From: Amphiscolops sp. MND2022
Taxonomy: Eukaryota
Reading direction: 5' to 3'
Length of the DNA: 64,000 bases
NCBI GenBank assembly: GCA_964187785.1
Contig: OZ076409.1
Span: 36,830,001-36,894,000 of the forward strand
Shown: positions 4,063 to 49,000 of the stretch, piece by piece
Numbering within the stretch: position 1 is the stretch's first letter
Layout: each line of letters opens with the position of its first letter
Program-made: the position numbers and the translations under genes
The notes under the pieces: generated by a model
Told to the model about the DNA's origin: nothing
Seen by the model: the letters and a program-made list of their open reading frames with translations, nothing else
Databases searched by the model: none

Positions 4063-7000
4063 GTTAGAATACTCTTACATAGCAACCTTAAAAGCGTCTT
4101 GTATGCAAAGTGCTGTTTGGTTGAGGAACCGTCCTGTGAAAAAATCTCTTTTGAAAATTGAATAGCTGAACAAAAGAAATCATCCTTATTTGGGCCGATT
4201 GAAATACCCGGTACACCGGTGAACCAACCTAAATCAAGTCCTTTTTAATCGACAAATTTGAGGAATAGAGAGACCTTTTCCTAATCAGAATTTCTTCATC
4301 GTCAACAAAAGCGAGCCTATTTTTGTTCAGTGCTTTATCGTGGCCACGGCAAAAGCTGCGGATGCCACCTCGATTGTCCACCGGTGGAAAGTCGGTGTAT
4401 CACCTATGACCACCGGTGGAGTGAGATTGATTGCCATCTGAAGAGTCCCAACTGATCCATTAGGTTCTCCCTTTCATTCTTTCACTTTTTCATGCGGATT
4501 ACAAAACTACACGAGCTTTTTAATACTTTTTCTAACTGAAGTGAAACTCACAACAAAAACGCATAATGTTTTTTTCTTGTTTTAGTTTTAATGTTTCTGT
4601 TAACCTAATAGTTCAATACTTGTTTCTTAATTTCGTAATTTTAAATGGGTTATTAAAAAGTTCTTTGTCATGTTCAGGATATCACGATTGTGAAGGCTAT
4701 GAAGAATCCTCCTTCGGGAGTCAAACTGGTGATGGAGGCAGTATGCATTCTGAAGAATGTCAAGGCGGACAGAATCCCCGATGGCACAGGCAAAATGGTG
4801 CTGGACTTCTGGGGACCCAGCAAACGACTCCTCGGGGACATGAAGTTCCTCGACAACCTCAAGGCGTTTGATAAGGTAGCCGATAAGGGACTACTATTCA
4901 TGATGTCATTTACTTTTTTTGGGGTAAGAACTCTATTTTTAGTAGGCAATTTTCGAAAAAAATACAAAACTGTTGCAGCGGTTAGTTTTTCTACCCAGCT
5001 TCGCACTGAAGTGTACACTTTTTGAACGCACTCTTTTTCGATCTCAGCACATATCTTGCGTGCGTGGCTGTGGAGCAGGAGTTCGTACGTTGTAAGTAGA
5101 GGCCTGATTAAGGTCCTAAAATAACGTCTAAAAGTGTTTCGTAAATAGCGTCTAAAGGAATACCATCTAAAACTCAACATATAAAGATAGGGAATGAGCA
5201 TTACTTAAATAGTGTATGCAATTACAAAAATTGAGGTTTTGCCGCAAAAACCCGGAAGGTTTCGGGTGAGTTTTGTCTTAAGTTTCCTTGATGTTGCTCT
5301 GAAAACCCGCCAGATTGTATAGAAATCCTAATAAATACTTGAAAACATATCGATGCATTAGGGAAATATTTAGCATGAGAAGAATACATACGCAAATACA
5401 GCCAAGTCGTGCTTCGGCTATCTCGGGAACGATTAACTTCGGCTTTTCCCTGGAAAAAAAATCAAACAAGAGTTCATTGAAAGCGCAATGACCGCAGGCA
5501 GCTGCAAAAAAATTCAAACGAAATTCAGTGCAAGCGTAACGACCGCGCTAATGTTCCGTTTATTGCAGCTTGCAAAAAGTAATTTAAAAATCCAGTCACC
5601 ACGAAGCTCCCGAGGCAGTTTTAGATTATTATCCAGGATACCTTTTTTGTTCTCAGCTCGATAAACTTGCACGACGACTAATAGAACCTCTTTTCATTTT
5701 TCTTTTCACTTTTTGTCAATTTCACATCCACTGAAGTTCACTTCACTACTGCCGCATTTACCTCATTTTTTGCAATCAAATTTCAAGTCAACTCTATACT
5801 GCTGATCCGTTTCTTTTTCTTTCGTTTTCTGTTTTACTTCGAATTGATATCACTCTTGAAGTTTCTCAAGATGAACCAAGAGATGGAGAATTTGCAGAAC
5901 GAGTTTGAAGGAGAGGAGCAGTATCAGAAGTATAAATCTGTAAGTCACATTTTTGCCAAATAGTCTTTCTCCTAGTTTTGCAAATACTCGAATTATGTTT
6001 TTCCTGTAGATGTTCAGAAATTTTTTGAAGTTGTGTGGGCACACCTAAAATTTTTGAAACTTGTATATATTTGCTCAGCAAAATTGAGGTTGTTTTTCGA
6101 AAAGTGTTGTGATTAAAACTACGGCATTTTTTGTTTTCAAATCGCAAGTTATCTTGTTCTGTGGCAACGACTACTCTGTAGCTAATATGTATTGGCTTAC
6201 CCGCTTGAAAAGTAGGTTTCTTTTTCACACATTTTCACCTACAATTTGCTTCAAGGAACAGTATTAAAGAGGGAATGTGTTTTGTTTTTGTTGATTACAA
6301 ATAGTAAAGAATTCTTTGATCGCAAAGCGCGACCGCTGTAAAAAATTAGTTTCTTTTTCACTCAATTTCACCTACAATTCGCTCCATGGAACAGTGTTAG
6401 AGAAGAAATGTCTTGTCTTCTGTCGATAACAAATAGTATAAAATCTATTTGGTCGCGATGCGCGACCGCTGTAAAAAATTAGTTTCTTTTTCACTCAATT
6501 TCACCTACAATTCGCTTCAAGGCACAGTGTTAGAGTATAAGTGCCTTGTCTTTTTGTTGATAACAAAAAGCAAAAAAATCTTTGGTCGCGATGCGCGACC
6601 GCCGTAAAAAATTAGTTTCTTTTTCACTCAATTTCACCTACAATTCGCTTCAAGGCACAGTGTTAGAGTATGAATGCCTTGTCTTTTTGTTGATAACAAA
6701 TAGCAAAAAAAAATCTTTGGTCGCGATGGGCGACCGCTGTGAAAAATTAGTTTCTTTTTCACTCAATTTTACCTTCAATTCGCTTCAAGGCACAGTGTTA
6801 GAGAAGAAATGTCTTGTCTTTTTGTTGATAACAAATAGTATAAATATTATTTGGTCGCGATGCGCGACCGCTGTAAAAAATTAGTTTCTTTTTCACTCAA
6901 TTTCACCTACAATAAGCTTCAGTGCGAAGTGTTAGATGAGAAATGTCTTGTCTTTTTGCTGATAACAAATAGTATGAAAACTGTATGGTCGCGATGCGCG

Positions 7001-46000: not shown

Positions 46001-49000
46001 TTGGTCATGGGTAAAAATCTCCGAGTGGAGATGCAGCCCCCGGGCTTCATCTTCCTTGTTATTCCGTTTTGGGACCGGCAACCCAACCATGAAACTGCGT
46101 TCTTGCCTTGCCTTAGTTAGATGCAATATTCAATTTGCAATTTGTGTTTGCAGTTAGTGCTTTTTCATGCTACTTCATGCTACATGTGGATGCGCTGTGC
46201 GCACTCCGTGCTCTAAATTTTCGGTGCTATTACACCCTTTTAGTTGCTAGTTATCGTTTACACTGTTGCCACTGTCGAAAAAGATAAAAAGAAAAGATAA
46301 AGGAAAAGGAAACAAGGAGGGAGAGATGAGAAATGAATAGAATAAAAAGATTGATGAACCTCGACCATTGTTTTTCTTGAGCTGCCTGATAGGATCGAGA
46401 GTAAGTCTCGCAAAAGAAATTTTAAATTGACCGTACTAATTAATTGATTTTATGGCAACTGCTTACCAAAAGAACTTTTATCAAACGCCAAGCAGTGCGA
46501 AGCTCCCGAGCTTCGGAAAATATGTTTCGAACAGTCATGTGATGGTCGTTGACCTTAAAACAAGTTTTAACGCTAACGGCAAATAAAAACTTTTTTTGAA
46601 TGGCCGAAAAGAAATTTTAACGCCTGAATTGCTCACGACAGGCTACAAAAAGCAATGACTTTGCCGTATAAGATTTGTGTACAAAGTTGTATTGATTTGA
46701 TCAAAATGCAGCAACGCTGGGTCAAAAATACTTCCACGAGGCCAATTTGACGATGTCTCGATGAACCGCCCAGCGCTATTTGATGTGCACTCTACCTCCT
46801 CAGTGGGACACAGATGACTCTGGGTACAGACTCAATGACGCCAACCCACACTTGACGGGGACGTCAAGACTAGACCCCGGGGAGTGTATGTAGCGACTAC
46901 CTATCGAGTGCACGATTTCGAAAATTTCGATGAAAATTTCGTTCAAGGGACTATATCTCCTCTACTAAAGAGTCATATTCCGCCAGACGGCAGCGTGTCT
47001 TTATTCAAGTACCTGTCCACGGAATTGAAGAGGATTTGAGCAAGAGATTCGAAAGAGACCCCAACCGAACGAGAAGATTGCAGAAAAACACGGCCACTAT
47101 CAGAAAAAGACTCAAATTTCTGCCAAAACGGACTGAACTTTGTTCTAACCAGTGCTTTCTTCAGCGAAGCGTTACAAGACGCTGTGATTACCAAAAATGA
47201 GTCAATTAGCTTGACCAAGCATCCGTGCTTGTGTCCCCGGCTAATTGCTGCCTCAAAAGTGCTAATTATGTAGTAATTTTCGTATTTTCTTGTTGTAACA
47301 GCTCGTGAGCTACTCATTTCAATCTCCTGTGTAACTTCGATAAAACTTGATTTTTCCTTTCCACCACTTGCATTTTTTAAAGGCTGTCTAAGTGTTGATT
47401 TCGAAGAAAAAGCGTAATGCGCACTACTGATAGCAATTACAGACTGGATCAGGCCGGCGAGCACTTCACAAGAAGCGGAATCCTCCTCTGACGGGACAGT
47501 TTTTACCCGATAGAGGCAAAATGAGCTCATGGTCATGGGCGCCTGTCCCGGGCAAATACCCATATCATGTGTTCCTCTAACTCTTATGGTTACGGCGACA
47601 ATGGTGAGAGCTTGTCGTTACACTTAGTTACCTCTTTTTACTGTAGTTTTCTTTATTTTTTTTATTTCTTTTCCTTCAGTAATTAGTAAGTTTATTTCAA
47701 TTTTTTAAAATTAATTTCAAGTTTTTTTCAATTAAAATAGAAGCCGAAGTTTATCGTTTTCGAGATAGCCGAAGCACGACTTGGCTGTATTTGCGTATGT
47801 ATTCTTCTAGCATGAACATGTAGAACTTCCTAGCAGACTCAACTAGTGTCTGCTTTAGATATTGTTACCATTTTGCAATTAGACGTTAATCCTGTTCGCC
47901 AGTTCTAAGCTCGCACTTGTCTAAATATGTCTAAACATGTTTTACAATTGCAGAAGTAGACGAAGCAAAAGTTTTCAAAGTATGATTGTGAGCTTATATG
48001 ATGGATTGGAAAGCTGATGATTGATTGAACTGAAACTAACAAAAATGAATATTGTTTTTTTCAGGATAACATTCCAGTTCAAATTATGAAGCAAATTCGG
48101 GAGAAGTTCATTCCCAACCCTGAGTTTGTCCCAGATAAAATTAAAAACGCGTCAATGGCCTGTGAAGGACTTTGCAAATGGGTTCGAGCTATGGACTCAT
48201 ATGATAAGTTAGTATGACGTATATTTTGTTACAACTTATCTTCGTTGTATGCATGTTAGTTTTATAACATAGATCTATTGACCTGAACGTTATGGACCTG
48301 AAATAGCATTATGGTCTACTTCAAATAGCATATGAACTTTTTAAATTCATCAAGTTTCGAATCACATCTTGTAAGTATATTATATGAAATTTTCAGGGTG
48401 GCTAAAATAGTGGCGCCCAAGAAAGAAAGTTTGAAAGAGGCAGAAGCTGAGCTGGCAGTCGCCATGGAGGCTCTGGAGAAGAAGAGGGGTGACCTGAGAG
48501 AGGTGCAGGAGAAGTTGCAGAGACTGCAATCCAAACTGGAGGAGAACAAACAGAAGAAGATTGACCTGGAAAACCAGGTAACCATGATTCAATCTTACAC
48601 GAGGTTGTTCTTGAGGAACACGAGGAAGCTAAACATTTCAATTTCGACATACATTTTTATTATTCATTGTTAATAAAAAAATTGTTTGATTGCATGGGTC
48701 TAAAAGCTCTATTTTGCAAATCTTCTGAATGCATTATATAGTCAATAATCATAGACACGAGCAGAAACTTTTGTCTGAAAATTTAGTTCGATGGACTAGG
48801 CTGATGCTAACATCGTATCAAATAATTCACAATAACAGCAGTTCTCGTATTTTTTGAAAAAAAGAACAAATGCAAGTATGATACTATTTTAACGAAATCT
48901 CTCCAATTATCGAAATAAAATCATTTTGTTTCTTCGGGGTTCCTCTCAGGAACTCTACAAACTGATAGACTTCTTTTATCTTATGTAGAACAGATGTAGA

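Follow-up and report, generated by a model that had tools for sequence, protein, structure and literature searches.

This study concerns a 64,000-nucleotide stretch of the genome of Amphiscolops sp. MND2022 (assembly GCA_964187785.1, contig OZ076409.1, positions 36,830,001 to 36,894,000 of the forward strand), here called the window, and a transposable element of the Polinton/Maverick type that it contains. The locus very probably holds a full-length but mutationally broken Polinton/Maverick copy of 23.2 kb that sits in a 752-bp dynein intron, was later entered by a 19.2-kb Ty3/Gypsy retrotransposon with identical long terminal repeats (LTRs), and is part of a multi-copy family whose host is likely an acoel worm. 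Every testable hallmark identifies the element as a Polinton/Maverick: terminal inverted repeats (TIRs), a target-site duplication (TSD), a DNA polymerase of family B that is protein-primed (pPolB), an RVE integrase, an A32-like packaging ATPase, an adenain-like protease and a double-jelly-roll capsid protein (Table 1).

A preliminary description of this DNA had reported a complete Polinton-like virus with 68-bp TIRs starting in AG, a 6-bp TSD and about 14 open reading frames (ORFs) on one strand. The ends were borne out. The two TIRs agree at 65 of 68 bases, with AGAAGA at the start and TCTTCT at the end of the element, and their first 29 bases are present in the window solely at both ends (0 matches among 100 shuffles). 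The duplicated AGCATG stands on both sides, a 6-bp match expected by chance at about 3e-4. The one-strand layout was also confirmed, since all long ORFs between 9782 and 28395 are on the plus strand, and the gene number came to about 16 after merging of the broken pieces. The word complete did not hold: the span includes a Ty3/Gypsy element of 19,232 bp that had not been mentioned, and core genes are broken.

The Gypsy element (28391-47622) lies at the end of the last Polinton ORF, 186 bp short of the right end, and makes up 45% of the 42.4 kb bracketed by the TIRs. Read as the preliminary description has it, this whole span would be an intact, unusually large Polinton-like virus of 42 kb whose extra DNA is its own cargo. 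A single TIR pair and a single TSD do enclose all 42.4 kb, and the long ORFs are all on one strand, but the 19.2 kb are delimited by TG...CA LTRs of 734 bp that are identical at 734 of 734 positions, and the gag-pol between them is open and encodes, according to Pfam, a zinc knuckle followed by protease, reverse transcriptase (RT), RNase H and integrase. Both the LTR ends and this domain order are those of Ty3/Gypsy elements. In addition, the GC content of the Gypsy part is 47.7% compared to 41.9% in the Polinton genes (about 38% in the flanks), and the Polinton core genes are broken, which leaves the single large virus with hardly any credibility. Because 19,232 bp of the span are a nested Gypsy element, the Polinton proper measures 23,199 bp, a normal size, or 19,701 bp when the satellite array described below is subtracted too. 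The identity of the LTRs, compared with the 3 mismatches among the 68 positions of the TIRs, indicates that the Gypsy element probably arrived much later than the Polinton integrated. The Gypsy element is very large (19.2 kb) and young, with about 2.4 kb free of long ORFs ahead of gag-pol and, 16 bases inside the end of the 5' LTR, a TGG motif that resembles a primer site. No Pfam or PHROGs family matched the 1,493-aa ORF that follows pol.

For the Polinton polymerase, Cys and His motifs were seen by eye at residues 179-182 and 307-310, which may belong to an N-terminal OTU domain such as adintovirus PolB has, although Pfam gave no match, and a VSR-like motif is found in the window polymerase and in 31 of 87 polymerase matches. 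VSR inserts have been reported in some Polinton polymerases (PMC10748475), and a TP-vOTU-exonuclease-palm model has been proposed for the enzyme (PMC11161782). The capsid assignment comes from a structure model of the sister protein P0006 (95-97% identical; 20-sequence alignment; pLDDT 82), whose best PDB matches were the double-jelly-roll capsids of Sputnik (E 6e-17), PBCV-1 and iridovirus; the PDB sequence search with the capsid profile gave no significant match. No Pfam, PHROGs or PDB-sequence match was obtained for the penton candidate, which from its position and motifs is likely the minor capsid protein, expected to be a single jelly roll. The 217-aa ORF ahead of the integrase presumably resembles PM/PZ.

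The core ORFs are not all open, as they are in the Mavericks counted as intact in PMC8097293. Two in-frame stops (14806 and 15811) and a frameshift near 16712-16740 interrupt the polymerase, and the predicted catalytic motif of the protease is altered in the window copy and intact in a metagenomic relative (L001, see below). The window copy is likely dead, predicted to be unable by itself to replicate, integrate or assemble. One could suppose a functional copy whose breaks are long-read assembly errors, given that the majority of them are frameshifts and that all were read from the assembly alone; three, however, are in-frame stops, the sister copies are broken at different sites, and in the same contig the Gypsy ORFs of 9.8 kb and 4.5 kb are open and the LTRs identical. 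As these long ORFs are clean, we consider assembly error quite improbable. The splits could also be programmed throughout the family, by read-through, frameshifting or introns, and in the protein collection the polymerases nearest to that of the window are likewise pieces of about 600 aa, but those relatives run through both stops and the frameshift and break elsewhere, and six sister capsids are unbroken. Sister proteins that are 90-99% identical and broken elsewhere cross the breaks in all four genes compared, those for polymerase and capsid and the SPRY-like and PLA2-like ones. Since the sisters cross the breaks and break at other sites, a programmed origin can be set aside with near certainty, and mutational decay of this copy is the explanation we retain.

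Table 1. Features of the Polinton, the nested Gypsy element and the flanking dynein exons, in window coordinates.
Feature	Position	Strand	Evidence
Host exon, DNAH7-like axonemal dynein heavy chain; donor GT at 4876	4675-4875	+	4675-4854 matches DNAH7 residues 2689-2749, E 9e-25
Left TSD, AGCATG	5372-5377	.	sequence
Left TIR, 68 bp, starts AGAAGA	5378-5445	+	repeat comparison
Satellite array, 26 units of 134 bp, pairwise identity 90% on average	6208-9705	.	repeat analysis
Putative SPRY/Neuralized-like + SOCS-box-like gene (345-347 aa in sisters), frameshift near 10622	9782-10818	+	Atlas lead, score 0.92, weak
109-aa ORF	10934-11263	+	no Pfam/PHROGs match
239-aa ORF, PC4-like stretch by eye	11616-12335	+	no Pfam, PHROGs, PDB-sequence match
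Protein-primed family B polymerase, about 1,630 codons, broken	12643-17545	+	PF03175 E 1e-26
279-aa ORF	17702-18541	+	no significant Pfam, PHROGs, PDB-sequence match
Apparent 526-aa ORF, copy-specific frameshift fusion of two overlapping genes	18654-20234	+	sister comparison
Small hydrophobic ORF, two membrane-helix unit copies in different frames	20416-21128	+	pairwise E 6e-6
A32-like packaging ATPase, in-frame stop at 21470	21134-22231	+	PF04665 E 6.5e-6
217-aa ORF at PM/PZ position	22249-22902	+	no Pfam match
RVE integrase, frame open	22927-23937	+	PF00665 E 1.8e-10
Likely penton (minor capsid), likely frameshift near 24700	24067-24890	+	position and motifs
Basic protein (21% K+R), PW position between penton and major capsid, possibly frameshifted	25003-25619	+	composition, position
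Double-jelly-roll major capsid protein, frameshift near 26330-26346 (445 aa in sisters)	25666-27004	+	sister model, sister comparison
Adenain-like maturation protease	26997-27479	+	PF00770 E 2.4e-6
212-aa last ORF, ends at Gypsy insertion point	27757-28395	+	ORF list
Gypsy 5' LTR, TG...CA, 734 bp	28391-29124	+	LTR comparison
Gypsy gag-pol, 3,255 aa, open	31514-41281	+	ORF list, Pfam domain order
Extra Gypsy ORF, 1,493 aa	41397-45878	+	ORF list; no Pfam/PHROGs match
Gypsy 3' LTR, 734/734 identical to 5' LTR	46889-47622	+	LTR comparison
Right TIR, 68 bp	47741-47808	-	repeat comparison
Right TSD, AGCATG	47809-47814	.	sequence
Downstream host dynein exon; acceptor AG ending at 48064	48065-48208	+	matches DNAH7 residues 2758-2805, E 9e-17

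The upstream host exon continues for 7 codons beyond DNAH7 residue 2749 and the downstream exon resumes at residue 2758. Because the flanking exons match near-consecutive residues and have GT and AG ends, the element is placed within one predicted intron of a DNAH7-like axonemal dynein gene, in the sense orientation; more DNAH7-like exons of the plus strand are found on both sides (3862-4875 and 48065-52394). The intron measures 43,189 bp with the element and 752 bp without it, a 57-fold lengthening that the dynein gene apparently tolerates.

The element belongs to a multi-copy family. At 90% identity the capsid cluster has 11 members on 9 contigs, the window's own included, and 6 of the 11 are full length and 96-99% alike; two related capsid clusters (about 75% and about 60%) have 32 and 33 members. 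An exact-sequence look-up found 2 of 10 window ORFs in the protein collection. Several clade members come from contigs whose length, 17-26 kb, is close to one unit; these may be free linear genomes or short long-read contigs, some of them with broken genes. A metagenome scan yielded one relative of 1.5 kb (L001), from a related family, in which the order of capsid, protease (51% identical) and next ORF is kept over positions 309-770. The IMG/VR capsid scans gave no genuine match, and the TIR pattern had 0 matches there; a weak IMG/VR capsid match (L002) was rejected, as it lies on the strand opposite to that of its genes. No match was found in GTDB or in phage records, and PHROGs gave nothing useful on the window ORFs.

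The polymerase search covered proteins of 416-1,325 aa, a range that a full-length sister of about 1,630 aa would fall outside, and returned 87 matches. For the tree, 68 were kept (P0101 and all matches from 690 aa upwards), and a coverage filter left 63, or 64 sequences with the window polymerase. The latter clusters with six unnamed proteins (47-65% identity) with a support of 1.0 on a stem of 0.81. Among the nearest named matches are proteins from fish, a beetle, a sea cucumber and coral, the closest (Apostichopus, Tribolium) being about 39% identical. The capsid profile gave 6,701 representatives; 28 of 65 near-full-length proteins form one clade, which was recovered by a 44-sequence IQ-TREE run (SH-aLRT 96-100). 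When 10 clusters of this clade were looked up, names were found for one, all of them from Convolutriloba macropyga: XP_075247060.1, XP_075240283.1 and XP_075255285.1, which are annotated as uncharacterized and are only 37% identical to the capsid of the window family. In these trees, capsid and polymerase are in distinct, long-stemmed clades with almost no named members, and for this reason an undescribed lineage is likely; that the named members found are all from C. macropyga makes the branch probably acoel. An undescribed lineage had been proposed before from the short TIRs, the satellite and the cargo. The trees make it likely, whereas short TIRs, a same-strand layout and cargo of the PLA2-like and ssDNA-binding kinds are weak reasons, being already on record for Mavericks or adintoviruses, and three of the four cargo names found no database support. 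From motifs and gene order we presume an affinity to group 1/Beta; the PolB exemplars of the adintovirus types are those of Mayetiola (Alpha) and Terrapene (Beta).

Several points weigh against the account given so far. The trees hold no named Alpha or Beta adintovirus and no Repbase reference, so that the pPolB and capsid phylogeny advocated in the preliminary description delivered the distinct clades and left them unplaced among described families; the capsid outgroup consists of the next-best unnamed matches; and the acoel affiliation of the family comes from a single named relative at 37% capsid identity. Sister contigs were told apart and matched by length only, the comparison being one of proteins and not of sister DNA, and the sister check of the breaks covers four genes (polymerase, capsid, SPRY-like, PLA2-like) but not those of the ATPase, penton, basic protein and hydrophobic ORF. 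At the Gypsy insertion, the exact flank duplication amounts to only 3 bases (CTT); the TSD of Ty3/Gypsy elements is usually 4-6 bp.

Our literature search, which excluded Repbase and subscription papers, found no paper that by its title deals with Polintons of acoels, or with PC4 or SPRY/SOCS genes as Polinton cargo, and the accessible part of the Convolutriloba genome note (PMC13650328) does not mention Polintons. Acoel genomes are rich in Gypsy elements (PMC6451197, PMC9911081); in one of them, Mavericks account for 4.5% and Gypsy elements for 28.2% (PMC6451197).

Upstream of the polymerase lies what is likely a captured gene for an adaptor of the SPRY/SOCS-box ubiquitin-ligase type. Atlas placed its protein with the SPSB-like and Neuralized clusters at 0.92, the ten best family matches all agreeing, at a recognition of 1965 that is below the threshold of 2300 and with 147 of 256 features shared, likewise under the threshold of the tool; this shortfall speaks against the assignment, as does the lack of a Pfam or PDB-sequence match. 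No relatives outside its own family were found, the 3 of 2,518 candidates that were kept all being at least 94% identical. The SPRY-like cluster and the PLA2-like/362-aa cluster are each present on 7 of 8 sister contigs, so both genes belong to the family. The cargo had been described as SPRY/SOCS, PC4, HUH-like and PLA2; the first of these received weak support from Atlas, and the other three none from Pfam, PHROGs or PDB sequences. The PC4-like stretch in the 239-aa ORF is presumed from a motif without database support. The HUH label of the 279-aa ORF found no database support either, and a single-sequence model of this protein was unusable (pLDDT 34). The two parts of the apparent 526-aa ORF, separate in the sisters, are a membrane-anchored ORF of 206 aa that is PLA2-like by eye, with no Atlas, Pfam, PHROGs or PDB-sequence match, and an ORF of 362 aa. 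The hydrophobic pieces at 20416-21128 are likely one frameshifted gene.

The internal satellite of the preliminary description is indeed present, as an array of about 3.5 kb with no clear higher-order period at lags 1-6. It might be a later insertion or expansion specific to this copy and not a feature of the lineage. Subterminal repeat arrays occur in Polintons, which counts against a late insertion; moreover, the satellite is confined to one place within the window, and no flanking duplication was evident around it by eye. Nevertheless, the array lies in a non-coding subterminal region, and the element without it measures 19.7 kb, nearer the mean of 16.9 kb reported for vertebrate Mavericks (PMC8097293). 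A late, copy-specific origin is thus a real possibility that falls somewhat short of probable.

In vertebrate Mavericks the TIRs span 46-1,447 bp and the whole elements 12.7-24.6 kb; their ends are doubled trinucleotides, and accessory regions are present (PMC8097293). The TIR length and size of the window element are in these ranges, and it shares with them the 6-bp TSD, trinucleotide-repeat ends comparable to (AGT)2, and a gene order that runs from the integrase through the likely minor capsid gene, the PW-position gene and the major capsid gene to the protease. Its same-strand layout is that of the Xenopus tropicalis Mavericks, and its decayed state that of 96% of the vertebrate copies (PMC8097293). 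In contrast, its (AGA)2 end is absent from the motifs listed in that paper, its polymerase of about 1,630 codons has clade-specific insertions and is about 39% identical to the nearest named proteins, and polymerase and ATPase are separated by several accessory genes; it also has the 3.5-kb satellite.

Similar to adintoviruses, the element has PolB, integrase, FtsK-type ATPase, a likely penton, hexon and adenain, and its virion gene order resembles the Beta adintovirus type (PMC8502044). Adintoviruses carry PLA2X, which in the Alpha type joins a PLA2 domain to a pX-like tail and belongs to the virion module, the labels of Fig. S2 in that paper also show SSDBP, SLATT (two-helix membrane) and RT insertions, and host-specific clades are the rule among them. 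The PLA2-like-by-eye gene of the window differs in being membrane-anchored and in lying between polymerase and ATPase, outside the virion module. No SPRY/SOCS or PC4 is found among the adintovirus labels and no acoel among the mapped hosts, a weak negative that does not extend to the sequence files (PMC8502044). By position, the basic ORF and the 217-aa ORF might be counterparts of the Cupiennin-like and GasderminX genes of Beta adintoviruses. The insertion of a GC-richer retrotransposon into an endogenous, capsid-encoding DNA virus recalls the Ngaro retrotransposons found in about one quarter of endogenous virophage elements (PMC8547959); unlike these, it is an LTR Ty3/Gypsy element in an animal Polinton, and a single case allows no claim of a targeting preference. 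Polinton-like viruses (PLVs) mostly have a helicase and a tyrosine recombinase instead of pPolB and RVE integrase (PMC11131425). A PLV identity was rejected, as the window has pPolB and RVE and gave no Pfam match to a PLV helicase or tyrosine recombinase. In coral polintoviruses, accessory genes are patchy (PMC11131425).

Other repeats were seen in the window. Pieces in an upstream dynein intron (1906-3559, minus strand) are reminiscent of a decayed hAT-type transposase from their motifs, with no Pfam match. Two dynein introns hold copies of a dispersed repeat family (1263-1708 and 52833-53033), which contain internal repeats and are about 77% alike. A hairpin resembling a miniature inverted-repeat transposable element has two 68-bp arms, 84% complementary, and a loop of 2 bp (54533-54670), and a perfect 144-bp palindrome with two loop-free 72-bp arms is based on an 11-bp repeat (57971-58114). 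Searches of the window for tRNAs and Rfam families found nothing.

Following established Polinton biology, the polymerase of the family would use protein priming at the short AGAAGA-ended TIRs to replicate a linear genome, integration by the RVE integrase would create a duplication of 6 bp, and ATPase, penton, double-jelly-roll capsid and protease would form a particle. The window copy would have integrated and then decayed, the Gypsy element landing near its right end much later. What we describe is a new Polinton family on an apparently undescribed, likely acoel branch, ordinary otherwise except for one interesting cargo gene with weak support. We can offer only as a speculation, and a rather doubtful one, that this family represents the first member to be described anatomically in an acoel polintovirus clade of genus level, one in which several families have amplified recently, the polymerase is enlarged and a SPRY/SOCS-box ubiquitin-ligase adaptor, unreported in Polintons, has been captured as the clade's own, and some members of which still make virions in living animals.

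Taken singly, the locus is an ordinary pile-up of transposons in an intron, and its value is that of an entry point. Acoels are early-branching animals, and Mavericks can make up several percent of an acoel genome (PMC6451197). If the clade is truly restricted to acoels, it would add to the test of co-divergence between polintoviruses and animals, and a genuine SPRY/SOCS adaptor would mean a virus that redirects host protein degradation.

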